Shown here: piece after piece, positions 3,371 to 54,694 of the stretch
Numbering within the stretch: position 1 is the stretch's first letter
Layout: each line of letters starts with the position of its first letter
Program-made: the position numbers and the translations under genes
Origin: Eledone cirrhosa
Taxonomy: Eukaryota
Length of the DNA stretch: 64,000 nt
Direction of reading: 5' to 3'
Assembly (NCBI GenBank): GCA_964016885.1
Contig: OZ024744.1
Span: forward strand, 24,986,001 to 25,050,000
Notes under the pieces: model-generated
Told to the model about the DNA's origin: nothing
Seen by the model: only the letters and a program-made list of their open reading frames with translations
The model's database searches: none

Positions 3371-3564
3371 AAAAGGTATGACCCCGACGGCAGAGCTCAA
3401 GCCGTTTCGACGGCTATATATATATACAGGCCAGAAATAGCCGTTGAAACGGCTTGAACTCTGCCGTCGGGGTCATACTTTTTCCTATTTCCCACTCTAC
3501 TACTCTAAGTATTGAGTACTCTGGTGCGTTATGGTCCATCTGGTTCTTTACCACAATTCCTTTG

Positions 3565-4054: not shown

Positions 4055-4796
4055 GAGAAGAAAGAAGAATACTGCGTGGTTGCACATGGGTTACATATGA
4101 TAAACTAGTCCTTCGTCAGTGATTTTCCAACCATCATGGGTATTTCATCACATTAAAAATCATATACCTCAGGTTGGTGCGAGCAATAACTAAAAAAAGT
4201 TATTGGGACCAGTAAATCGCGTAAACCGAGGGGGACAAGTAAACAACATAGAAGGATAAAAGCAAATATATATATGTCTGTGTGTATGTAAGAATGTGTA
4301 TAAATGTAAATATGCATGTATGTATGTATACGTGCATATGTGTATATATATGTGTGTGTGTATGTATGTACTTGCGTATATATATATATATACTTACTTC
4401 ATATATATATATATATGTATGTTCTTCTGGTTTTATAATTTCACAAAGTGTTACCAATAGAGAGAGAGTCGGTTTCTAACATAGACACAAGACTCTCTCA
4501 TTGGAATTTACACAACATCAACTAAGTAGATATGTATGTATGCATGTGTAGATATAGATGTTATTGTATGTGTGGATGTGGATGTTTTGAGTTGTATGTG
4601 TGCATGTGTATATGCTTTGTATCTGTAGAAGTGTATATGCAGTTATATGTATGTATGTATGTATGTATATATGTATGTATGTATAACCAAAGATTAATAT
4701 GGTTCAATGAATACAGTTTTACAATAGAAAAAAATTCCTGGAGTTATTAATATTATTCAAAATAATAACAAATGAAGATATTCACATAATCAAAAT

Positions 4797-4862
4797 ATAT
4801 GCTTTATATATATTTCGAAGGTACTGTGTTGTTTTTTCTGTAGGTTCTCGTCAGATAAAATA
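4797..4862 (-). ncRNA. Hammerhead motif, family H1 (diverged copy)
   Basis: Minus strand TATTTTAT-CTGACGA-GAACCTACAG..CAGTACCTTC-GAA-ATATATAT-A, within an element (~4685-4940) homologous to 14617-15040. Confidence 0.6.
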
Positions 4863-5072
4863 TGTGATTTGATGTATGACATACCTCAACGATCTTGATA
4901 TTTCATTTCCTGTACTGCCATTTGTTAATATTTTGAATAATGTATATATGTATATATATTTGTATGTATATATATATGTATGTATGTATCTATGTATATA
5001 TGTATGTATGTATATATATATATATGTATGTATGTATGTATGTATCTATGTATGTATGTATGTATATATATA

Positions 5073-8910: not shown

Positions 8911-9311
8911 GTTTGGTCTGGTGTGTCGATTAAACAAAAAGCCCAGTACTTGACTGTTTCTTTTATTTTATCGACCCCGGAAGAATAAAAGGTAAAGTTG
9001 TGCTCAACGGGAGTTGAGCTCAAGTCAAAAAGAACCGGAAAAAAAACTGCAAATCTTTGATTGCTAATCGATTCTGACCATTGCCCGTCGTTGATGGTAT
9101 TGGTTATAGTTTCTAAAGTCTTCGAAATAACAACAGCAACAACAACAGCAACAACAACAACAATTCAACCGCCAAAAACAACAGCTATACAAAATAATTA
9201 TCAATAGTAACAATAACAACAACAATAGCAACAATAACAACAACAACCACAGCAACAACAACAACAACAACATCAACGACAAACTCAATAACAAAAACAA
9301 CAATCGTCGTC

Positions 9312-12300
9312 GTGGTAGTGGTGGTGGCAATGGTGGTGGTAGTGGTGGTGGTGGTGGTGGTAGTGGTGGTAGTGGTGGTAGTAGTAATAGTGGTGGTGGT
9401 GATGGAAGTGGTGGTGGTAGTGGTGGTAGTAGTAATAGTGGTGGTGGTGATGGAAGTGGTAGTGGTAATAGTGGTGGTGGTGGTGGTGGTGTTGGTGGTG
9501 GTAGTGGTGGTAGTGGTAGTGGTGGTAGTGGTAATAGTGGCGGTGGTGATGGAAGTGGTGGTGCTGTTGGTGGTGGTAGTAGTAATAGTGATGGTGGTGA
9601 TGGCGGTGGTAGTGGTGGTAGTAGTATTAGTGGTGGTGGTGTTGGTGGTGGTAGTGGTTGTAGTAGTATTAGTAGCGGTGGTGGTGGTGGTAGTGGTGTT
9701 GGTGGTGGTAGTAGTATTAGTGGGGGTGGTGTTGGTGGTGGTGTTGGTGGTGGTGGTGGTTGTAGTAGTATTAGTGGTGGTGGTGGTAGTAGTATTAGTG
9801 GTGTTGGTGGTGGTAGTGGTTGTAGTAGTATTAGTGGCGGTGGTGGTGTTGGTGGTGGTAGTGGTGGTACTAGTATTAGTGGTGGTGGTGGTGGTGGTAG
9901 TAGTGGTTGTAGTAGGATTAGTGGTGGTGGTGGTGGTGGTGGTAGTAGTATTAGTGGTGGTGGTGGTGGTAGTGGTTGTAGTAGTATTAGTGGCGGTGGT
10001 GGTGGTGGTGGTAGTGGTTGTAGTAGTATTAGTGGCCGTGGTGGTGGTGGTGGTAGTGGTTGTAGTAGTATTAGTGGTGGTGGTGGTGGTGGTGGTAGTA
10101 TTAGTGGTGGTGGTGGTGGTAGTGGTTGTAGTAGTATTAGTGGTGTTGGTGGTGGTAGTCGTTGTAGTAGTATTAGTGGTGGTGGTGGTGGTTGTAGTAG
10201 TATTAGTGGTGGTGGTGGTGGTAGTGGTTGTAGTAGTCGTTGTAGTAGTATTAGTGGTAGTGGTGGTGGTAGTGGTTGTAGTAGTATTAGTGGCGGTGGT
10301 GGTGTTGGTGGTAGTAGTCGTTGTAGTAGTATTAGTGGTAGTGGTGGTGGTAGTGGTTGTAGTAGTATTAGTGGCGGTGGTGTTGTTGGTGGTAGTAGTC
10401 GTTGTAGTAGTATTAGTGGCGGTGGTGGTGTTGGTGGTAGTAGTGGTTGTAGTAGTATTAGTGGTGGTGGTGGTGGTAGTGGTTGTAGTAGTATTAGTGG
10501 CGGTGGTGTTGTTGGTGGTAGTATTAGTGGCGGTGGTGTTGTTGGTGGTAGTAGTCGTTGTAGTAGTATTAGTGGTGTTGGTGGTGGTAGTGGTTGTAGT
10601 AGTATTAGTGGCGGTGGTGGTGTTGGTGGTAGTAGTGGTTGTAGTAGTATTAGTGGTGTTGGTGGTGGTAGTGGTTGTAGTAGTATTAGTGGCGGTGGTG
10701 GTGTTGGTGGTAGTAGTGGTTGTAGTAGTATTAGTGGTGGTGGTGGTGTTGGTGGTAGTAGTGGTTGTAGTAGTATTAGTGGTGTTGGTGGTGGTAGTTG
10801 TTGTAGTAGTATTAGTGGTGGTGGTGGTGGTAGTGGTTGTAGTAGTATTAGTGGCGGTGGTGTTGTTGGTGGTAGTAGTCGTTGTAGTAGTATTAGTGGC
10901 GGTGGTGGTGTTGGTGGTAGTAGTGGTTGTAGTAGTATTAGTGGTAGTGGTGGTGGTAGTGGTTGTAGTAGTATTAGTGGCGGTGGTGTTGTTGGTGGTA
11001 GTAGTCGTTGTAGTAGTATTAGTGGCGGTGGTGGTGTTGGTGGTAGTAGTGGTTGTAGTAGTATTAGTGGTGGTGGTGGTGGTAGTGGTTGTAGTAGTAT
11101 TAGTGGTGGTGGTGGTGTTGGTGGTAGTAGTGGTTGTAGTAGTATTAGTGGTGTTGGTGGTGGTAGTGGTTGTAGTAGTATTAGTGGCGGTGGTGGTGGT
11201 GGTGGTAGTATTCGTTGTAGTAGTATTAGTGGTGGTGGTGGTGGTTGTAGTAGTAGTAGTGGCGGTGGTGGTGTTGGTGCTAGTAGTGGTTGTAGTAGTA
11301 TTAGTGGTGTTGGTGGTGGTAGTGGTTGTAGTAGTATTAGTGGCGGTGGTGGTGTTGGTAGTAGTAGTTGTTGTAGTAGTATTAGTGGTGGTGGTGGTGG
11401 TGGTAGTGGTTGTAGTAGTATTAGTGGTGGTGGTGGTGTTGGTGGTAGTAGTGGTTGTAGTAGTATTAGTGGTGGTGGTGGTGGTTGTGGTTGTAGTAGT
11501 ATTAGTGGCGGTGGTGGTGTTGGTAGTAGTAGTGGTTGTAGTAGTATTAGTGGTGTTGGTGGTGGTAGTGGTTGTAGTAGTATTAGTGGTGGTGGTGGTG
11601 GTAGTGGTTGTAGTAGTATTAGTGGCGGTGGTGGTGTTGGTAGTAGTAGTGGTTGTAGTAGTATTAGTGGTGTTGGTGGTGGTAGTGGTTGTAGTAGTAT
11701 TAGTGGCGGTGGTGGTGTTGGTGGTAGTAGTGGTTGTAGTAGTATTAGTGGTGGTGGTGGTGGTAGTGGTTGTAGTAGTATTAGTGGCGGTGGTGGTGTT
11801 GGTGGTAGTAGTGGTTGTAGTAGTATTAGTGGTGGTGGTGGTGTTAGTGGTAGTAGTGGTTGTAGTAGTATTAGTGGCGGTGGTGGTGTTGGTGGTAGTA
11901 GTGGTTGTAGTAGTATTAGTGGTGTTGGTGGTGGTAGTGGTTGTAGTAGTATTAGTGGCGGTGGTGGTGTTGGTGGTAGTAGTTGTTGTAGTAGTATTAG
12001 TGGTGGTGGTGGTGGTAGTGGTTGTAGTAGTATTAGTGGCGGTGGTGGTGTTGGTAGTAGTAGTGGTTGTAGTAGTATTAGTGGTGGTGGTGGTAGTAGT
12101 CGTTGTAGTAGTATTAGTGGCGGTGGTGTTGTTGGTGGTAGTAGTCGTTATAGTAGTATTAGTGGCGGTGGTGGTGGTGGTGGTAGTGGTTGTAGTAGTA
12201 TTAGTGGCGGTGGTGGTGGTGGTGGTAGTGGTTGTAGTAGTATTAGTGGCGGTGGTGGTGTTGGTGGTAGTAGTGGTTGTAGTAGTATTAGTGGTGTTGG

Positions 12301-13040
12301 TGGTGGTAGTGGTTGTAGTAGTATTAGTGGTGGTGGTAGTGGTTGTAGTAGTATTAGTGGTGTTGGTGGTGGTAGTGGTTGTAGTAGTATTAGTGGCGGT
12401 GGTGGTGGTAGTGGTTGTAGTAGTATTAGTGGTGTTGGTGGTAGTAGTGGTTGTAGTAGTATTAGTGGTGGTGGTGGTGGTAGTGGTTGTAGTAGTATTA
12501 GTGGTGTTGGTGGTGTTGGTGGTAGTAGTGGTTGTAGTAGTATTAGTGGTGTTGGTGGTGGTAGTGGTTGTAGTAGTATTAGTGGTGTTGGTGGTGGTAG
12601 TGGTAGTAGTGGTTGTAGTAGTATTAGTGGTGTTGGTGGTAGTAGTGGTTGTAGTAGTATTAGTGGTGTTGGTGGTGGTAGTGGTAGTAGTGGTTGTAGT
12701 AGTATTAGTGGTGTTGGTGGTGGTAGTGGTTGTAGTAGTATTAGTGGTGTTGGTGGTGGTAGTGGTAGTAGTGGTTGTAGTAGTATTAGTGGTGTTGGTG
12801 GTGGTAGTGGTTGTAGTAGTATTAGTGGTGTTGGTGGTAGTAGTGGTTGTAGTAGTATTAGTGGTGTTGGTGGTGGTAGTGGTAGTAGTGGTTGTAGTAG
12901 TATTAGTGGTGTTGGTGGTAGTAGTGGTTGTAGTAGTATTAGTGGTGTTGGTGGTGGTAGTGGTAGTAGTGGTTGTAGTAGTATTAGTGGTGTTGGTGGT
13001 GGTAGTGGTTGTAGTAGTATTAGTGGTGTTGGTGGTGGAG
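9312..13040. repeat. Compound GTG/GTA trinucleotide satellite
   Basis: Variable-length units anchored on GTTGTAGTAGTATTAGTGG. Confidence 0.95.
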
Positions 13041-13620
13041 GCGAAGTGGTTGTTATTAGTTGTTACAATGCTAGTGATGTCAGTGTCGGTAGCGCTGTGT
13101 TTATAAGACCAAGTAATGGCAATATGGATGCTAAACCTTATAAGAATGACAGTAATTCTTGAGATGGCGGCGTTGACGGCGTTGGCGGTGTGGTTCTAAG
13201 TATTCTCACACCGGATATTATCCTTCCAATTTAAACGGATGCGATTTCTTCTCGCACATGTGGTGTTTAACTGCGAGTGTATAGTGCTACACACACACAC
13301 ATTCATACACGTACACACACATACATACTCTCTCTCACACACACACATACACACACATATATATGTATATATACATACACACACGAATAAACGCGGTCGT
13401 ATATCTGCATATGCATAGAGACTTGTAAGTGTCTTTACTTATGTATGTATGTATGTATGAATGTATGTATGTATGTATATACGTATGCCTGTGTGTATAT
13501 ATGTATTTATGCAAGTATATATATATGTATGTGTGTATGTTTGTGTGTATGTATGTATATATATATATATATATATACATATATATGTGTGTCTGTGTTT
13601 ATGTATGTATGTATATATAA

Positions 13621-13832
13621 ATAGGAAAAAGTATAGCCCCGGCGGCAGAGCTCAAACCGTTTCGACGGCCATTTCTGGACTAAATTCAATTTAGTCCAGA
13701 AATAGCCGTCGAAACGGATTGAGCTCTGCCGTCGGAGTCATACTTTTTCCTATTTCCCACTCTACAACCCTAAGTATTGAGTACTCTGGTGCGTTATGGT
13801 CCATCTGGTTCCTTACCACAATTCCTTCGTTA
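13621..13832. mobile_element. Family X element with inverted 5' duplication
   Basis: Same sequence as 3368-3567, with arms separated by AAATTCAATTT. Confidence 0.75.
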
Positions 13833-14547: not shown

Positions 14548-14616
<69 letters not shown>

Positions 14617-14619
<3 letters not shown>

Positions 14620-15036
14620 GGTTAAACAAGGTTCAATGAATAAATCAAAGAATGAGTTTTACAATTGATTGGAAGCACTCAACAACTAGTTTTTCGGAGT
14701 TATTAATATTAATTCAAAATATTAACAAAAATAGACATTCGTGTGATCAAGTATATTTTATCATACATATTTCAGAGGTACTGAGCTATCTTCAACAGTA
14801 TGTCCTCATCAGAGAAAATAAGATGATGCATGACATACTCTGACTTAGTAGATGGTTAAGATTCAGTCATGGTAGTATGAATCTTAACCATCTACTAAGT
14901 CAGGGTATGTCATGCATCATCTTATTTTCTCTGATGAGGACGTACTGTTGAAGATAGCTCAGTACCTCTGAAATATGTATGATAAAATATACTTGATCAC
15001 ACGAATGTCTATTTTTGTTAATATTTTGAATTAATA

Positions 15037-15040
<4 letters not shown>
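14617..15040. mobile_element. Long palindromic element with a hammerhead motif in each arm (family H1)
   Basis: 163-bp arms (14703-14865 / 14878-15040), 12-nt spacer, about 2 mismatches, flanked by (TA)n. Hammerhead motif at 14923-14989 (+) and 14754-14820 (-). Confidence 0.85.
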
Positions 15041-15131
<91 letters not shown>

Positions 15132-20670: not shown

Positions 20671-20917
20671 TAGTTATTAAGAAAGAAAAAAAAGGAAGAA
20701 AACACGGGGATAGTCATGGCTGGAACGATTTTGATCTTGTTATCAACCTATTCATACTTCCTCCGCAATAACCCAACCACCACCACAAACACCTCCCCGC
20801 CTTCACCATGAACAACACTACCACAACACCTGCTTTTATCATGACCGACACCGCCACCACCTGTACAATTAGCATGAAACTATCATATTAACCTACATAA
20901 CCAATACCGCAACTCTC

Positions 20918-22978
20918 AACACCACCACCAACACCACCAACACCACCATCACCATCACCACCACCAACAACACCACCAACACCACCACCAACAACACCAC
21001 CACCACCACCACCAACACCACGACCAACACCACCACCAACAACAACAACAACAAAAACAACAACACCACCACCACCACCATCACCACTACCAACACCACC
21101 ACCAACACCACCAACACCCACCACCACCAACAACACCAACACCACCACCAACACCACCAACACCCACCACCACCAACAACACCAACACCACCACCAACAC
21201 CACCACCAACAACACCAACACCACCACCAACACCACCACCAGCAACACCACTGCCAACACCACTACCACCACCACGAACACCACCACCACACAACCACCA
21301 CCACACTACCACCACCACACTACCACCACCACCACCACACTACCACCACTACCACCACCACCACACTACCACCACCACACCACCACCACCACCACCACCA
21401 CACTACCACCACTACCACAATCACAACCACCACACTACCACCACCACCACACTACCACCACTACCACCACCACCACCACCACCACCACACTACCACCACC
21501 ACACTACCACCACCACCACCACACTACCATCACTACAACCACCATCACCACCATACTACCACCACCACACTACCACCACCACCACACTACCACCACTACC
21601 ACCACCACCACACTACCACCACTACCTCCACCACCACCACACTACCACCACCACACTACCACCACCACCACCACACTACCACCACTACCAACACCACCAC
21701 CACACTACCACCACCACACTACCACCACCACCACCACCACACTACCACCACTACCAGCACCACCACCACCACCACATTACCACCACCACACTACCACCAC
21801 CACCACAACAACACTACCATCACTACCACCGCCACCACCACCATACTACCACCACCACACTACCACCACCACCACAACAACACTACCATCACTACCACCA
21901 CCACCACCACCATACTACCACCACCACACTACCACCACCACCTCACACTACCACGACCACCACCCCACTACCACCACCACCACCACACTACCACCACCAC
22001 CACCACACTACCACCACCACACCACCACCACCACCACCACACTACCACCACCACCACCACCACGCTACCACCACCACCACCACCACCACCACCACACCAC
22101 CACCACCACCACACCACCACCACCACCACACTACCACCACACCACCATCACCACCACCACCACCACACCACCACCACCACCACCACACCACCACCACCAC
22201 CACCACCACACTACCACCACCACCACCACCACGCTACCACCACCACCACCACCACCACCACCACACCACCACCACCACCACCACATCACCACCACCACAC
22301 TACCACCACACCACCATCACCACCACCACCACCACACCACCACCACCACACCACCACCACCACCACCACCACACTACCACCACCACCACCACCACCACAC
22401 CACCACCACACTACCACCACCACCACCACCACACCACCACCACCACCACACTACCACCACCACACCACCACCACCACCACCACACTACCACCACCACCAC
22501 CACGCTACCACCACCACCACCACCACCACCACCACCACACCACCACCACCACCACCACCACCACCACACCACCACCACCACACCACCACCACCACACCAC
22601 CACCACCACAACACCACCACCACCACCACCACCACCACCACCACCACCACCACCACCACCACCACCACCACCACACCGCCACCACCACCACCACCACACT
22701 ACCACCACGCTACCACCACCACCACCACCACCACCACCACCACCACACCACCACCACCACCACCACCACCACCACCACACCACCACCACCACCACCACCA
22801 CACCACCACCACCACCACACTACCACCACCACCACCATAACACTACCACCACCACCACCACCACCACCACCACCACCACCACCACCACCAAAACCACCAC
22901 ACTACCACCACCACCACCACCACCACCACCACCACCACCACCACCACCACACTACCACCACCACCACCACCACCACCA
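20918..22978. repeat. (CAC)n-based compound satellite
   Basis: CACCAC runs punctuated by ACACTAC. Confidence 0.95.
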
Positions 22979-23175
22979 TATCTGTTAACACTACACATCA
23001 AGTTAACCAACCTAATTTCTTAATTTTTCTCCCATTCTGCGCCCAACTGTTATTCTGTTTGGATACTGCTGTGATACTTAGAAGCACATATATTGTGTGT
23101 GGGTATATATAAATAAACACATATATATATATATATGTTTATTTATTAAAATAACAAATTATTACTATATATATG

Positions 23176-23318: not shown

Positions 23319-23404
23319 GTATATATATATATATATATAGATAGATATATATATGCTTTGTATGATAGAGATGATCTCATTTTCAAAATCCATTAGTAGT
23401 TTAC

Positions 23405-24641: not shown

Positions 24642-25422
24642 GATGCTGATGGTGATGATAATGATGATGATGATGTTGACGACGATGATGGTGGTGATGA
24701 CGATCGTGGTGGTGGTGGTGATGACGATGGTGATGGTGGTGGTGGTGGTGGTGGTGGTGGTGGTGGTGGTGGTGATGACGATGGTGATGGTGCTGGTGAT
24801 GGTGATGGTGGTGGTGGTGATGACGATGGTGATGGTGGTGGTGGTGGTGATGACGATGGTGGTGGTGGTGGTGGTGATGACGATGGTGATGGTGGTGGTG
24901 GTGGTGGTGGTGGTGATGACGATGGTGGTGGTGGTGGTGATGACGATGGTGATGGTGGTGGTGGTGGTGATGACGATGGTGGTGGTGGTGGTGGTTGTGG
25001 TGGTGGTGGTGGTGATGGCGATGGTGATGGTGGTGGTGGTGGTGGTGGTGATGACGATGGTGGTGGTGGTGGTGGTGATGACGATGGTGATGACGATGGT
25101 GGTGGTGGTTGTGATGACGATGGTGATGGTGATGACGTGGATGTATATATCTAAAATAATAATACACTTCTAATACAACCTCCTCCTCCCCCTCCTCCAA
25201 CCTAGTTGACTCCAGTTTATTTCTCCTCCCACCCACCCCCACACCCTCAGCCTACTCTACACACGCCGTTCTCTGCTCGCTCTCTCTCTCTCTTACTCTC
25301 TCACTTTACCCCGACTCTCTCTCTCACCCTATTTAGTACAACTCTCTTGTCAGTGTCAGTTCCATTACTAGTACCCACCCTCACCCCTTCCTTGTTAATT
25401 TCTGTCTCCTCATATGTCGTCC

Positions 25423-25509
25423 CCTTACGGGGTCGATAAAATAGGGTACCAGTAATACACTGGTGTATTTGCTGGCCTTGTGCCAAAAGTGGAAACAATT
25501 ATTATTATT
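25423..25509 (+). mobile_element. SINE family A 3' fragment
   Basis: CCTTACGGGGTCGATAAAAT...GGAAACAATTATTATT. Confidence 0.8.
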
Positions 25510-25521
25510 GTTGTTACCACC

Positions 25522-28500
25522 ACCACCACCATTCAGTGGCTGTCATCCTTTCCCTACACCACCTCTACCACCATTCAGTGGCTGTCATCCTTTCCCTACA
25601 CCACCTCCACCACCATTCAGTGGCTGTCATCCTTTCCCTACACCACCTCCACCACCATTCAGTGGCTGTCATCCTTTCCCTACACCACCTCCACCACCAT
25701 TCAGTGGCTGTCATCCTTTCCCTACACCACCTCTACCACCATTCAGTGGCTGTCATCCTTTCCCTACACCACCTCCACCACCATTCAGTGGCTGTCATCC
25801 TTTCCCTCCACCACCTCCACCACCATTCAGTGGCAGTCATCCTTTCCCTACACCACCTCCACCACCATTCAGTGGATGTCATCCTTTCCCTACACCACCT
25901 CCACCACCATTCAGTGGCTGTCATCCTTTCCCTACACCACCTCCACCACCATTCAGTGGCTGTCATCCTTTCCCTACACCACCTCCACCACCATTCAGTG
26001 GCTGTCATCCTTTCCCTACACCACCTCCACCACCATTCAGTGGCTGTCATCCTTTCCCTACACCACCTCCACCACCATTCAGTGGCTGTCATCCTTTCCC
26101 TACACCACCTCCACCACCATTCAGTGGATGTCATCCTTTCCCTACACCACCTCCACCACCATTCAGTGGCTGTCATCCTTTCCCTACACCACCTCCACCA
26201 CCATTCAGTGGCAGTCATCCTTTCCCTACACCACCTCCACCACCATTCAGTGGCTGTCATCCTTTCCCTACACCACCTCCACCACCATTCAGTGGATGTC
26301 ATCCTTTCCCTACACCACCTCCACCACCATTCAGTGGCTGTCATCCTTTCCCTACACCACCTCCACCACCATTCAGTGGATGTCATCCTTTCCCTACACC
26401 ACCTCCACCACCATTCAGTGGCTGTCATCCTTTCCCTCCACCACCTCCACCACCATTCAGTGGCTGTCATCCTTTCCCTACACCACCTCCACCACCATTC
26501 AGTGGATGTCATCCTTTCCCTACACTACCTCCACCACCATTCAGTGGCTGTCATCCTTTCCCTACACCACCTCCACCACCATTCAGTGGCTGTCATCCTT
26601 TCCCTACACCACCTCCACCACCATTCAGTGGCTGTCATCCTTTCCCTACACCACCTCCACCACCATTCAGTGGATGTCATCCTTTCCCTACACTACCTCC
26701 ACCACCATTCAGTGGCTGTCATCCTTTCCCTACACCACCTCCACCACCATTCAGTGGCTGTCATCCTTTCCCTACACCACCTCCACCACCATTCAGTGGA
26801 TGTCATCCTTTCCCTACACCACCTCCACCACCATTCAGTGGCTGTCATCCTTTCCCTACACCACCTCCACCACCATTCAGTGGATGTCATCCTTTCCCTA
26901 CACCACCTACACCACCATTCAGTGGCTGTCATCCTTTCCCTACACCACCTCCACCACCATTCAGTGGATGTCATCCTTTCCCTACACCACCTCCACCACC
27001 ATTCAGTGGCTGTCATCCTTTCCCTACACCACCTCCACCACCATTCAGTGGATGTCATCCTTTCCCTACACCACCTCCACCACCATTCAGTGGATGTCAT
27101 CCTTTCCCTACACCACCTCCACCACCATTCAGTGGCTGTCATCCTTTCCCTACACCACCTCCACCACCATTCAGTGGATGTCATCCTTTCCCTACACCAC
27201 CTCCACCACCATTCAGTGGCTGTCATCCTTTCCCTACACCACCTCCACCACCATTCAGTGGATGTCATCCTTTCCCTACACCACCTCCACCACCATTCAG
27301 TGGCTGTCATCCTTTCCCTCCACCACCTCCACCACCATTCAGTGGCTGTCATCCTTTCCCTACACCACCTCCACCACCATTCAGTGGATGTCATCCTTTC
27401 CCTACACTACCTCCACCACCATTCAGTGGCTGTCATCCTTTCCCTACACCACCTCCACCACCATTCAGTGGCTGTCATCCTTTCCCTACACCACCTCCAC
27501 CACCATTCAGTGGCTGTCATCCTTTCCCTACACCACCTCCACCACCATTCAGTGGATGTCATCCTTTCCCTACACTACCTCCACCACCATTCAGTGGCTG
27601 TCATCCTTTCCCTACACCACCTCCACCACCATTCAGTGGCTGTCATCCTTTCCCTACACCACCTCCACCACCATTCAGTGGATGTCATCCTTTCCCTACA
27701 CCACCTCCACCACCATTCAGTGGCTGTCATCCTTTCCCTACACCACCTCCACCACCATTCAGTGGATGTCATCCTTTCCCTACACCACCTCCACCACCAT
27801 TCAGTGGCTGTCATCCTTTCCCTACACCACCTCCACCACCATTCAGTGGATGTCATCCTTTCCCTACACCACCTCCACCACCATTCAGTGGATGTCATCC
27901 TTTCCCTACACTACCTCCACCACCATTCAGTGGATGTCATCCTTTCCCTACACCACCTCCACCATCATTCAGTGGCTGTCATCCTTTCCCTACACCACCT
28001 CCACCACCATTCAGTGGATGTCATCCTTTCCCTACACCACCTCCACCACCATTCAGTGGCTGTCATCCTTTCCCTACACCACCTCCACCACCATTCAGTG
28101 GCAGTCATCCTTTCCCTACACCACCTCCACCACCATTCAGTGGCTGTCATCCTTTCCCTACACCACCTCCACCACCATTCAGTGGCAGTCATCCTTTCCC
28201 TACACCACCTCCACCACCATTCAGTGGCTGTCATCCTTTCCCTACACCACCTACACCACCATTCAGTGGCTGTCATCCTTTCCCTACACCACCTCCACCA
28301 CCATTCAGTGGCTGTCATCCTTTCCCTACACCACCACCACCACCATTCAGTGGCTGTCATCCTTTCCCTACACCACCTCCACCACCATTCAGTGGCTGTC
28401 ATCCTTTCCCTACACCACCTCCACCACCATTCAGTGGCTGTCATCCTTTCCCTACACCACCACCACCACCATTCAGTGGCTGTCATCCTTTCCCTACACC

Positions 28501-31314
28501 ACCTACACCACCATTCAGTGGCTGTCATCCTTTCCCTACACCACCTCCACCACCATTCAGTGGCTGTCATCCTTTCCCTACACCACCTCCACCACCATTC
28601 AGTGGCTGTCATCCTTTCCCTACACCACCTCCACCATCATTCAGTGGCTGTCATCCTTTCCCTACACCACCTCCACCACCATTCAGTGGCTGTCATCCTT
28701 TCCCTACACCACCTCCACCATCATTCAGTGGCTGTCATCCTTTCCCTACACCACCTCCACCACCATTCAGTGGCTGTCATCCTTTCCCTACACCACCTCC
28801 ACCACCATTCAGTGGCTGTCATCCTTTCCCTACACCACCTCCACCATCATTCAGTGGCTGTCATCCTTTCCCTACACCACCTCCACCACCATTCAGTGGC
28901 TGTCATCCTTTCCCTACACCACCACCACCACCATTCAGTGGCTGTCATCCTTTCCCTACACCACCTACACCACCATTCAGTGGCAGTCATCCTTTCCCTA
29001 CACCACCTCCACCATCATTCAGTGGCTGTCATCCTTTCCCTACACCACCTCCACCACCATTCAGTGGCTGTCATCCTTTCCCTACACCACCTCCACCATC
29101 ATTCAGTGGCTGTCATCCTTTCCCTACACCACCTCCACCACCATTCAGTGGCTGTCATCCTTTCCCTACACCACCTCCACCACCATTCAGTGGCTGTCAT
29201 CCTTTCCCTACACCACCTCCACCATCATTCAGTGGCTGTCATCCTTTCCCTACACCACCTACACCACCATTCAGTGGCTGTCATCCTTTCCCTACACCAC
29301 CTCCACCACCATTCAGTGGCTGTCATCCTTTCCCTACACCACCTCCACCATCATTCAGTGGCTGTCATCCTTTCCCTACACCACCTACACCACCATTCAG
29401 TGGCTGTCATCCTTTCCCTACACCACCTCCACCACCATTCAGTGGCTGTCATCCTTTCCCTACACCACCTCCACCACCATTCAGTGGCTGTCATCCTTTC
29501 CCTACACCACCTCCACCACCATTCAGTGGCTGTCATCCTTTCCCTCCACCACCTCCACCACCATTCAGTGGCTGTCATCCTTTCCCTACACCACCTCCAC
29601 CATCATTCAGTGGCTGTCATCCTTTCCCTACACCACCTCCACCACCATTCAGTGGCTGTCATCCTTTCCCTACACCACCTCCACCACCATTCAGTGGCTG
29701 TCATCCTTTCCCTACACCACCTCCACCACCATTCAGTGGCTGTCATCCTTTCCCTACACCACCTACACCACCATTCAGTGGCTGTCATCCTTTCCCTACA
29801 CCACCTCCACCACCATTCAGTGGCTGTCATCCTTTCCCTACACCACCTCCACCACCATTCAGTGGCTGTCATCCTTTCCCTACACCACCTCCACCACCAT
29901 TCAGTGGCAGTCATCCTTTCCCTACACCACCTCCACCACCATTCAGTGGCTGTCATCCTTTCCCTACACCACCTCCACCACCATTCAGTGGCAGTCATCC
30001 TTTCCCTACACCACCTCCACCATCATTCAGTGGCAGTCATCCTTTCCCTACACCACCTCCACCACCATTCAGTGGCTGTCATCCTTTCCCTACACCACCT
30101 CCACCACCATTCAGTGGCTGTCATCCTTTCCCTACACCACCTCCACCACCATTCAGTGGCAGTCATCCTTTCCCTACACCACCTCCACCATCATTCAGTG
30201 GCAGTCATCCTTTCCCTACACCACCACCACCACCATTCAGTGGCTGTCATCCTTTCCCTCCACCACCTCCACCACCATTCAGTGGCTGTCATCCTTTCCC
30301 TACACCACCTACACCACCATTCAGTGGCTGTCATCCTTTCCCTACACCACCTCCACCGCCATTCAGTGGATGTCATCCTTTCCCTACACTACCTCCACCA
30401 CCATTCAGTGGCTGTCATCCTTTCCCTACACCACCTCCACCACCATTCAGTGGATGTCATCCTTTCCCTACACCACCACCACCACCATTCAGTGGCTGTC
30501 ATCCTTTCCCTACACCACCTCCACCACCATTCAGTGGCAGTCATCCTTTCCCTACACCACCTCCACCACCATTCAGTGGCAGTCATCCTTTCCCTACACC
30601 ACCACCACCACCATTCAGTGGCTGTCATCCTTTCCCTACACCACCTCCACCACCATTCAGTGGCTGTCATCCTTTCCCTACACCACCTCCACCACCATTC
30701 AGTGGCTGTCATCCTTTCCCTACACCACCTCCACCACCATTCAGTGGATGTCATCCTTTCCCTACACTACCTCCACCACCATTCAGTGGCTGTCATCCTT
30801 TCCCTACACTACCTCCACCACCATTCAGTGGCTGTCATCCTTTCCCTACACCACCTCCACCACCATTCAGTGGCTGTCATCCTTTCCCTACACCACCTCC
30901 ACCACCATTCAGTGGCTGTCATCCTTTCCCTACACCACCTCCACCACCATTCAGTGGCTGTCATCCTTTCCCTACACCACCTCCACCACCATTCAGTGGC
31001 TGTCATCCTTTCCCTACACCACCTCCACCACCATTCAGTGGCTGTCATCCTTTCCCTACACCACCTCCACCACCATTCAGTGGCTGTCATCCTTTCCCTA
31101 CACCACCTCTACCACCATTCAGTGGCTGTCATCCTTTCCCTACACCACCTCCACCACCATTCAGTGGCTGTCATCCTTTCCCTACACCACCTCCACCACC
31201 ATTCAGTGGCTGTCATCCTTTCCCTACACCACCTCCACCACCATTCAGTGGCTGTCATCCTTTCCCTACACCACCTCCACCACCATTCAGTGGCTGTCAT
31301 CCTTTCCCTCCACC
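25522..31314. repeat. 42-bp minisatellite, 138 units
   Basis: Unit ATTCAGTGGCTGTCATCCTTTCCCTACACCACCTCCACCACC. First anchor at 25531, last at 31285, a difference of exactly 137x42. Confidence 0.97.
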
Positions 31315-32568
31315 AGTGGTACCAATATACCTATTAGTTAGTCCTACTCAAGATGTTAGCAATAAGGCCAATAACTTATAACACGTGAAACAATAAACAC
31401 CACTCTCATTACCACATATCAGCTCCTTCACTCCACCCTTCACTCCACCCTTCCTCCCGCCCTTACTTACTTCCCTCCACTTCAAGCTCTTCCTCTCTCT
31501 CCTCTCTTCTCTATTGCCACCACCACCACCACCACAACCTCCACCACCACCACCACAATCTCCACCACCACCAACACCACTACCACCATCACCACTACCC
31601 CCCACCCCCACCACCACCACCACCACCACCACAACCTCCACCATCACCATCACCACCACCACCACCACCACCACTACAACCTCCACCACCACCACAACAT
31701 CCACCACCAAATCCTAAGGGTTGCGCCAATTTGCTCGACTCCACACATCACCTAATTTACCTGACACAGGTAGGACTGTTAAAGGTGTGTCTATCATCGA
31801 CACCTTGAATTAACAGTTGTTACTGTCAGGAATGAGGTATATGTTAATCCAAAGACACAGTCTTCAGTGATGTGACAGTAATGTTAGAGCTAACTATAGT
31901 TACATGATGACCCAGGAGGGGGAATTAACAGATGTTACTGTCAGGAATGAGGTATATGTTAATCCAAAGACATAGTCTTCAGTGATGTGACAGTAACAAT
32001 AGATAGTAGTAATGGCGGGGAAATAACAGTTGTTACTGTCAAGAAGGTATTACAATTGAGGAAGTTGTGTCTCATCAGGAACTATATCCTACTTCAAGAT
32101 TGATAGGGCAACCGTAATACATAGACATATAATTCAGTCATGTCTGCTTACTACTTGTCATTGGGTCTTAGAAAATAAAGGGTCATTATGAACACGTGCA
32201 CAAACGAATGCACACCTACACACATAAAAACATACGCATTCACACACACACGCAACGCACAAACAACACAACAAGTGTACACACACTCACATACAACGCA
32301 CATACACACACAGCACACCCACACAATACACATACACAGTCACATACATAGATAGACGGCGTTTCAATGCGCTTTTTTGTAACATCAAGTCGGTGACCTT
32401 GTTTTGACTGTCAGTTGTAAATGTTACACCTATGCAGGTGAGCGACATACAACAGGATATTGTTGTTGTTGTGGTTGTTGTTGTTGCTGTGGTTATTGTT
32501 GTTGCTGTGGTTATTGTTGTTCTTGTTGTTGCTGTTGTTGTTGCTGTTGTTGTTGCTGTTGTTGTTGC

Positions 32569-38627: not shown

Positions 38628-38910
38628 ATTCAATGATATTAATAAATGGAAACTATATTTATAAAACCATATTTATTCTATTATATATATTTCAAGGGCA
38701 CCAAAACTTTGGAACGCACTCATTAGATAACATAGGAAGTGTGTTTTATAAATGTTGACATAACCAAGGAAAATATACCTTAAAGGTTCAAGTTTTCCTT
38801 CGTATTTTATCTGATGAGAGCGTACCAAAGTTTTGGTACCCTTAAAATATATATAATAGAATAAATATGGTTTTATAAATATAGTTTCCATTTATTTAAT
38901 ATCATTGAAT
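38628..38910. mobile_element. Palindromic family H1 element with decayed hammerhead motifs
   Basis: ~105-bp imperfect arms. CTGATGA at 38811 (+) and CTAATGA on the minus arm (38720-38726). Confidence 0.8.
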
Positions 38911-38949
38911 ATTATACTCCAGAAATATATATATAATAATAATAATAAT

Positions 38950-39196
38950 TGTTTCTACTTAAGGCACAAGGCCAGCAATTACCCAGTACATTACTGGTAC
39001 TTTATTTTTAATAAGAATTGTTTCTACGTTAGGCACAAGGCCAGCAATTTCCCAGTGCATTACTGGTACTTTATTTTATCGACCCCGTAAGGATGAAAGG
39101 CAAAGTTAACCTTGGCGGGATTTGAACTCGGAATGGCAAGGGCCGTAACTCTATACGTCAAAGCATGGCGTTCGACCCTCTACCAATACTGCCATA
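38950..39196 (-). mobile_element. SINE family A with tandemly duplicated 3' end
   Basis: Full copy at 39018-39196 plus an extra 3' segment at 38950-39008. Confidence 0.85.
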
Positions 39197-53927: not shown

Positions 53928-54003
<76 letters not shown>

Positions 54004-54042
54004 GATATTAATAAATGGAAACTATATTTATAAAACCATATT

Positions 54043-54107
54043 TATTTCATTATACATATTTCAGGGATACCACATTAACTTATGGTATGCCTTCATCAGA
54101 CAAAATA
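54043..54107 (-). ncRNA. Type I hammerhead ribozyme motif, family H1, intact core
   Basis: TATTTTGT-CTGATGA-AGGCATACCA-loop-TGGTATCCCT-GAA-ATATGTAT-A-ATGAAATA. Confidence 0.7.
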
Positions 54108-54320
54108 CAATATATAACAGTTTTACAAATAGCTTTGACGTACCCTTTTAAAGTGCAAGCATTACTTTTGGAGGCTGTCTGGATAGTGATTTGTTTATAT
54201 TATTTTAATAAGTCATAGTGTTAAGCACAATTAGAAAAAGACGGAGAGAAAGAAAAAAAGAAAAAAGACGGAGAGAGAGAAAGAAAACCTGGAGAAATAT
54301 CGGAGAGAGAAAAGTATGTA

Positions 54321-54355
<35 letters not shown>

Positions 54356-54460
54356 GATATTACTTTAATATCGTAAACCTACTCCAGAAACTGTTGAGTG
54401 CTGTTATATCAGTTATAAAATATTTACTCGTTGTAACCCAACAATCTTAAATAAAACTTT

Positions 54461-54500
<40 letters not shown>

Positions 54501-54504
<4 letters not shown>

Positions 54505-54691
54505 AACCAGTAAGACCCCGACAGCTGAGCTCAAGCCGTTTCGACAGCTAATTCAGTCCAGAATTAGCCGTCAAAACGGCTTGAGCTCAGCTGTCGGGGT
54601 CTTACTGGTTCCTATTACCCACTCTACTACCCCAAGTATTGAGTACTTTGGTGCGTTATGGTCCACCTGGTTCCTTACCACATTTCCTTCG

Positions 54692-54694
<3 letters not shown>
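54501..54694. mobile_element. Family X element with inverted 5' duplication
   Basis: Same family as 3368-3567. Both arms share copy-specific variants. Confidence 0.75.

Follow-up and report, generated by a model that had tools for sequence, protein, structure and literature searches.

The 64,000-nucleotide stretch of Eledone cirrhosa DNA analyzed here (the window) contains, at 14605-15042, two inverted repeat arms that each carry a hammerhead motif. The right arm (14878..15042, + strand) is a 5'-truncated copy of a pseudo-LTR (pLTR) that stops at what we call the short end site and then runs into (TA)n. Its hammerhead (14923..14989, +) is of type I and belongs to subfamily a, with a C·C mismatch at 14941/14966 and a helix III of sequence AUAUGUAU. 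The left arm (14605..14876, - strand) is an inverted 5'-truncated pLTR copy with a tail of ~90 nt, which reaches the long end site before (TA)n. It includes the mirror hammerhead (14754..14820, -) and a bulged hairpin (hairpin 1, ACUC…UU-GAGU; 14677..14700, -) that opens the tail, immediately 3' of the short end site. The two arms share two changes, a G at position 17 (14981), which makes the cleavage triplet AUG, and, in helix I, a C·U mismatch at C14929; folding did not return the hammerhead (z 0.01). Hammerhead cleavage triplets follow the NUH rule, which AUG breaks, and because G17 is present in both arms this copy is likely cleavage-dead, a prediction from its bases. Within subfamily a, G17 occurs in 8 copies and A17 in 3,538. 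Two of the eight are the arms of this locus and the other six do not have the helix I change, so we rejected a G17 source lineage. The hammerhead at 54043-54107 is a better representative of the family.

The original prediction had placed the family at four loci, two of them with mirror arms, and all were found again at the same positions. At the third locus, a subfamily c pLTR copy (53995..54287, -) that matches a coding element's end at 83% identity stops at the short end and carries the hammerhead at 54043-54107 with an AUA triplet and a long helix I. Its inverted partner arm (54312..54468, +) has no hammerhead, extends to the long end and contains hairpin 1 at 54381-54399. Both arms of the subfamily b locus are decayed. 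The left arm (38628..38767, -) has a CTAATGA core, a mirror motif that starts at 38734 (-) and a short end, and the right arm (38798..38925, +) has a hammerhead at 38803-38863 in which AAAA replaces GAAA, and breaks off inside hairpin 1. The subfamily d copy (4688..4910, -) has a decayed hammerhead (4797-4862), a deletion in hairpin 1 and a long end, and it faces a tiny inverted partner arm with a short end (4919..4941, +). The two mirror arms already listed thus stand, and the partners of the 54107 and 4862 copies, which had been missed, can now be added. Three of the four loci combine a short with a long end; the remaining one is broken off within the tail.

The window holds other repeats as well. 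A SINE-like repeat at 38950-39195, which presumably resembles an octopus SINE, adjoins the 38803 arm and recurs at ~25425-25500; it also interrupts two hammerhead copies on contig C1. A lone 50-nt piece between TA repeats (23353-23402) matches the N-terminal part of the subfamily c ORF at 92% identity. At 25390-31400, a 42-bp satellite is repeated in tandem about 139 times, with 97-98% identity between copies. In two long low-complexity stretches (9064-13195 and 20873-23112), GC skew is extreme and frames free of stops run on several strands; both are probably tandem repeats.

Three full hammerhead motifs occur in the window, and none in any of 200 local shuffles. When the 3.0-Gb source genome was searched by exact matching for the pattern TTTNTCTGAYGA-N24-36-GAAATATRTAT, we obtained 46,010 matches, with 0 for the reversed pattern used as a control. 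The helix II strands at the window loci match those first proposed, as does the C·C at pair 4, and genome-wide a C lies opposite a C at this pair in 42,165 of the 46,010 matches (91.6%). We sampled 102 copies, that is, all strict matches around 100 listed places on C1 between 0 and 17.03 Mb. The C·C is present in 98 of these and pair 4 is a standard pair in none, while position 17 is A in 101 and G in 0. The triplet is AUA in 101 copies, which conforms to NUH, in contrast to the AUG at 14605-15042. The core (CUGANGA and GAAA), the A15.1-U16.1 pair and the three helices are those of a type I hammerhead. The G10.1-C11.1 pair of that type is replaced in most copies by A-U or G·U (A-U 61, G·U 26, A·C 11, G-C 2, U·U 2).

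Covariation supports the type I architecture and the structural selection that had been proposed, at the level of differences between subfamilies. Across 18 hand-picked subfamily representatives, helices I and II covary, and both partners have changed in 15 of 19 pairs. This level was reached by 0 of 500 shuffles, a test that kinship among the representatives inflates, and slid controls drop to 34-54% paired. The core, C19, C44 and helix III are unchanged in all 18, although for the core and most of helix III this invariance is imposed by the search patterns, in which they are fixed. Judged from the sequences, the hammerhead fold is convincing because transversion-type swaps occur and because subfamilies h and i have a helix I that differs entirely. 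No hammerhead was among the 150 Rfam matches listed of 379 in the window; none was reported in the three full loci, or in 53990-54200 at E values up to 10. The Rfam miRNA matches in the window are driven by microsatellites, and we dismissed them.

In subfamily c, helix I reaches well beyond 8 bp, and the segment 54015-54135 folds with helix II and the long helix I (z -3.45). A canonical 4-bp helix II would end at the position of the C·C, and subfamilies h and i keep this mismatch alongside their different helix I. We tentatively suggest that the invariant C·C is an internal loop that may dock on the extended helix I as a tertiary contact; alternatively, it could be a protein-binding site. Helix III is palindromic, as proposed. 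Its formation in a monomer is predicted to cost ~3 kcal/mol, and this cost, together with the self-complementary 8-mer, leads us to predict a dimer. Dimeric hammerheads of Penelope-like elements (PLEs) have reportedly been described by Lunse et al. in 2017.

Do these motifs cleave at all? The 5' truncations of the copies are not clustered at the cleavage site (3 of 43 lie within 6 nt), which suggests that the templates that were copied had been intact or re-ligated and that cleavage leaves no mark in the genome. The same absence would fit a fold that is retained for protein binding or packaging and cleaves rarely or never. So would the noncanonical 10.1-11.1 pair and the core of the youngest sister family (family X, below), which carries U4C, a change reported to lower activity (PMC3088659, in the part consulted); low in vitro activity is also on record for PLE hammerheads (PMC4209133, likewise in part). 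However, all catalytic core bases and A17 stay unchanged even as helices I and II are replaced, as selection for chemistry predicts, and we regard a noncleaving role as unlikely.

The copies end at two fixed sites, ~50 and ~137-150 nt past the cleavage position. Among the 102 sampled copies, 57 end at the short site, 35 at the long site and 3 likely at the long site, with 1 read-through and 6 other ends. TA targeting, as originally claimed, is evident, as the 92 copies assigned a short or a long end stop in a TA-type repeat where one was expected. The expectation of inverted repeats was likewise borne out, with an inverted partner arm within the fetched flank for 59 of the 102 copies. These resolve into 45 pair events, of which 37 are short+long (37 of the 40 classified), 3 are short+short, none is long+long and 5 are unclear; the end calls were scripted, and the set includes a few noisy rows, two events counted twice and a few partners from another family. 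Where both arms contain a hammerhead, exactly one arm has the tail in 12 of 14 pairs (binomial p 0.003). Paired arms are closely alike, with at most two differences in 10 of 14 pairs, and those at 14605-15042 share two rare changes. This likeness might suggest that fold-back copying of the first arm, or gene conversion from it, produces the second, without a second priming event. However, shared variants are equally expected if both arms are copied from one RNA template, the long arm has a tail that the short arm does not, and the greater truncation can be on either arm. We thus think fold-back or conversion quite improbable as the source of the second arm.

The sequences to which these copies belong become apparent outside the window. 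Hammerhead pairs in divergent orientation, a few kilobases apart, enclose reverse transcriptase (RT) and GIY-YIG frames, so that the Penelope ORFs sought as linked partners do lie between inverted hammerheads, and the suspected link to PLEs holds in that the hammerheads sit in the pLTRs of coding elements. A protein search returned many near-complete element copies, of which 82 were scored. In subfamily c, intact 742-aa ORFs follow a hammerhead and tail at two loci (L047 and L048); the order at L047 is (TA)n, an inverted copy with tail, a direct pLTR with hammerhead, tail, 5' UTR and ATG. The full unit runs from the 3' UTR through hammerhead, short end site, hairpin 1, a tail of ~85-90 nt, long end site, hairpin 2 and ATG to the RT and GIY-YIG domains. 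A sense hammerhead lies ~240 nt upstream of the ORF at 8 of 30 loci, and L064 has a hammerhead at each end. For subfamily a, a pattern search found a separate ORF start beyond the same pLTR, with a longest frame of 395 aa within the fetched flank. The sister family X was considered as its coding partner and rejected, the protein match seeded from L024 being a nested insertion. The subfamilies whose coding partners were examined (a, c and e, as distinct from b, d, f and g) all lead into ORF starts.

The family had been described as noncoding, and this description is not supported, since the window copies are 5'-truncated ends of coding families, with the 742-aa ORFs in subfamily c and the ORF in subfamily a. 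A noncoding, retrozyme-like family mobilized in trans would account for a window in which tblastn finds no RT frame, for the shortness of most copies and for the excess of motif copies (46,010) over matches to a hairpin 2-ATG pattern (518, from a pattern that covers only some families). But the arms in the window can be aligned with coding-element ends at about 75-95%, subfamilies a, c and e reach ORF starts, and the copies form inverted pairs of variable length rather than head-to-tail arrays of noncoding monomers that each carry a hammerhead. For subfamilies a and c the retrozyme-like reading is contradicted, and overall we consider it highly improbable.

The 742-aa ORF encodes an RT with GLYRDD followed by a C-terminal GIY-YIG domain (VVY…YVG…RF.NH), both recognized from their motifs and from visual comparison with the published Hydra-1_Obim protein; a Pfam scan of four partial ORFs returned no family. 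The DKG motif reads DKT (SDKTNN in subfamilies c and a). The linker has CxCX5C (CNCRNKSNC), there is no CCHH, and the endonuclease has CxxC and CxH around its E and N residues (CDLC…E, N…CRH). At the aligned N-terminal position we find RWR, where homologues have RWK. The best full-length protein matches are 39% identical, one of them named from Argonauta hians. From DKT, CxCX5C, CxxC…CxH, the (TA)n targets and the pLTR hammerhead, we assign these elements to the Hydra-type PLEs, an assignment by motif rather than by a tree with reference Hydra RTs, which is nonetheless very probably correct.

What do the two end sites have in common? A few bases 3' of each, after a UA-rich stretch, is a bulged hairpin of the form RCUC-stem-loop-NN-GAGY. 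Between hammerhead and ATG there are exactly two such hairpins in all five families compared (a, c, e, X and L132), a number that none of 500 shuffles reached in any of the five regions, and in two element bodies (3.6-3.7 kb) there are 0 and 1. Of 67 copies from subfamilies a, c and e, 64 have their apparent end no more than 15 nt from a hairpin, the exact end base being blurred by TA microhomology. For subfamily a, hairpin 2 was predicted from the other families and then seen as GCTCC…TTGAG in 25 of 25 matches of a looser pattern. The tail between the two sites varies from ~80 to 165 nt between families, and the hairpin keeps its offset of a few nucleotides from both ends. By eye, GCTC-hairpin-NN-GAGC also appears at the ends of the published Hydra-2_Amil, Hydra-2_Ajap and Hydra-1_Ajap (twice) consensi, and it is not clear in those of Hydra-1_Obim, Hydra-1_Amil and Hydra-1_Crog (PMC8557442, in the part consulted). 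The hairpins fold weakly on their own (z -0.36 and 0.05), hairpin 2 often has no good inner stem, and the loose hairpin expression also matches unrelated places in the window.

From their position, the hairpins are likely candidates for setting where reverse transcription starts. It is also conceivable that the ends of the same coding Hydra elements are made by endonuclease resolution of a DNA intermediate, with the hairpins as endonuclease-recognition, promoter or translation signals. Craig et al. credit endonuclease-mediated resolution with the tail (PMC8557442), and a need for the Penelope tail in endonuclease recognition is noted in PMC11167929 (both papers being used here in part); hairpin 2 also lies only 25-50 nt before the ATG. 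Against resolution of a DNA intermediate, the RT of Poseidon starts internally at two sites that match its genomic ends (PMC11167929, same part), and the hairpin offset stays constant while the tail changes in length. We therefore prefer the hairpin-set starts and hold the DNA-resolution explanation to be rather unlikely.

Other families in this genome provide points of comparison. Family X is a sister Hydra-type family (L091-L108, L150 and L226-L255, e.g., G000:C1:247662100-247670600) with 45% protein identity and open frames of 830-832 codons. Eleven 832-codon copies differ from each other at 0-11 of the last 700 amino acids, and such near-identity indicates that family X is very young. Its hammerhead core, CCGAAGA (U4C), gives 6,674 matches; the center of helix III is self-complementary and covaries, being AU, GU or GC, and the noncomplementary AC is found in 26 of the 6,674. 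With a tail of 165 nt, family X obeys the two-end rule: by eye, 15 of 30 copies end short, 12 long and 3 read through, the script having labelled 9 of the 30 "other" because it allowed one base too few around the end sites. Family Y, a TA-inserted palindromic family, is present in the window at 13622-13830, 54502-54693 and ~3494-3517 and in other places. Of its 53 ends, 32 are short, 19 long and 2 other, and the short end falls 5 nt before an ACUC…UU-GAGU hairpin, in keeping with the rule for hairpin 1. Further hammerhead-bearing families with different helices occur at L132, L143, L144, L152, L153 and L160, and those at L144 and L152 form short+long inverted pairs with the same hairpin.

Altogether, we favor, with moderate confidence, a reading in which the hammerheads lie in the pLTRs of coding, (TA)n-targeting Hydra-type PLEs, and the short+long palindromes arise from two RT starts set by the hairpins. 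The two-start part is drawn by analogy with Poseidon, where RT starts internally at two sites and both strands are extended (PMC11167929, in part). The RT-endonuclease would bind a hairpin and nick both strands of a TA repeat, each nick would prime on the UA-rich sequence immediately 5' of one or other hairpin, and the two 5'-truncated cDNAs would join head to head to give palindromes like those in the window. Long-ended arms that include the ORF exist, and if hairpin 2 is needed, the template would have to be a tandem transcript or a circle. Circularization by the hammerhead, as proposed for other PLEs (PMC4209133, in part), could supply such a template. The hammerhead is predicted to cleave after AUA only as a dimer, through its self-complementary helix III, and cleavage would probably process or circularize tandem transcripts, the copied template being intact or re-ligated at that point.

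More tentatively, Hydra PLEs across phyla might use a repeated bulged hairpin as a portable start signal, one for each DNA strand, with the UA stretch pairing with nicked TA and a dimer-gated C·C hammerhead circularizing the template, which would place both signals downstream of the 3' UTR. This wider proposal is possible rather than probable. If true, it would explain the Penelope tail, the inverted pLTRs and the TA targeting together, and so bear on the open question of how internal RT start, one-sided tails and inverted repeats arise in PLEs. A hairpin that is repeated twice at a fixed offset from the ends, and that spans families of ~45% identity as well as coral and sea cucumber consensi, could be a programmable start signal. 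The link between ribozymes and Penelope elements is already known, and it is the end rule that matters here.

How do these families relate to known systems? Beyond the papers cited, we found neither the end hairpins nor these families in the literature covered, a scope that leaves out subscription papers, Repbase and Dfam, where a library entry may exist; the consulted part of a 2026 study of Octopus vulgaris repeats (PMC13282606) does not mention Hydra or ribozymes. The Hydra clade, its (TA)n preference, its hammerheads and the Hydra-1_Obim element of Octopus bimaculoides were described by Craig et al. (2021; PMC8557442, here and below in the part consulted). The suggestion that the family might be undescribed therefore stands for the families and fails for the clade, its target preference and its ribozymes, all of which are published. 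What we add is a new, very abundant set of Hydra families, different from the published octopus member, together with the two fixed end sites and the inverted pairs with one end of each kind. Like the published clade, these elements have a single ORF with RT and then GIY-YIG, DKT, CxCX5C, CxxC and CxH, (TA)n targets and a type I hammerhead near the 3' end with a short palindromic helix III. They differ in having RWR rather than RWK, and in a unit of ~3.5 kb from hammerhead to hammerhead (L064) where the clade is generally <3 kb, a typical rather than defining trait. A 10-bp helix II with an invariant C·C is absent from the 27 Hydra rows of File S2 of that paper, and the Hydra-1_oBim hammerhead pattern has 0 exact matches in this genome. 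The motif is present here in at least 46,000 copies, and the main text of PMC8557442 does not mention twin hairpins, nor does it contain the words "hairpin" or "stem-loop."

Other hammerhead-bearing repeats show a similar mixture of shared and distinct features. The minimal PLE hammerheads of Cervera and de la Pena (2014; PMC4209133, in the part consulted) also have a long helix II and a palindromic or absent helix III, with many covarying families per genome, nearby inverted pairs and predicted action as dimers. They have a conserved G10.1-C11.1 and a helix I of 4-5 bp, whereas our families have A-U or G·U at this pair, 8 bp plus an extension in helix I and an invariant C·C. Non-LTR retrozymes (PMC7229834; bioRxiv 10.64898/2026.07.22.740005), whose papers do not mention octopus in the parts consulted, resemble our copies in that their type I hammerheads lie in repeats with kinship to the pLTRs of PLEs, but they are noncoding head-to-tail monomer arrays rather than truncated inverted ends of coding elements. 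A mechanistic parallel can be drawn with Poseidon, a PLE of Anolis carolinensis in which two internal RT starts bracket the tail in vitro (Frangieh et al. 2024; PMC11167929, in part). The Poseidon sites are 111-118 nt inside the ORF at an AC-rich stem-loop, with a tail of 30-40 nt, whereas those found here are in the 5' UTR, UA-rich and placed before two hairpins, with a tail of ~85-90 nt (~165 nt in family X). The Poseidon hammerhead is dispensable in vitro and its start sites have no homology to the target, whereas TA microhomology is inferred here, a difference that counts against our proposed mechanism. In both systems, two end or start sites lie downstream of the hammerhead, the targets are AT-rich and both strands are extended.
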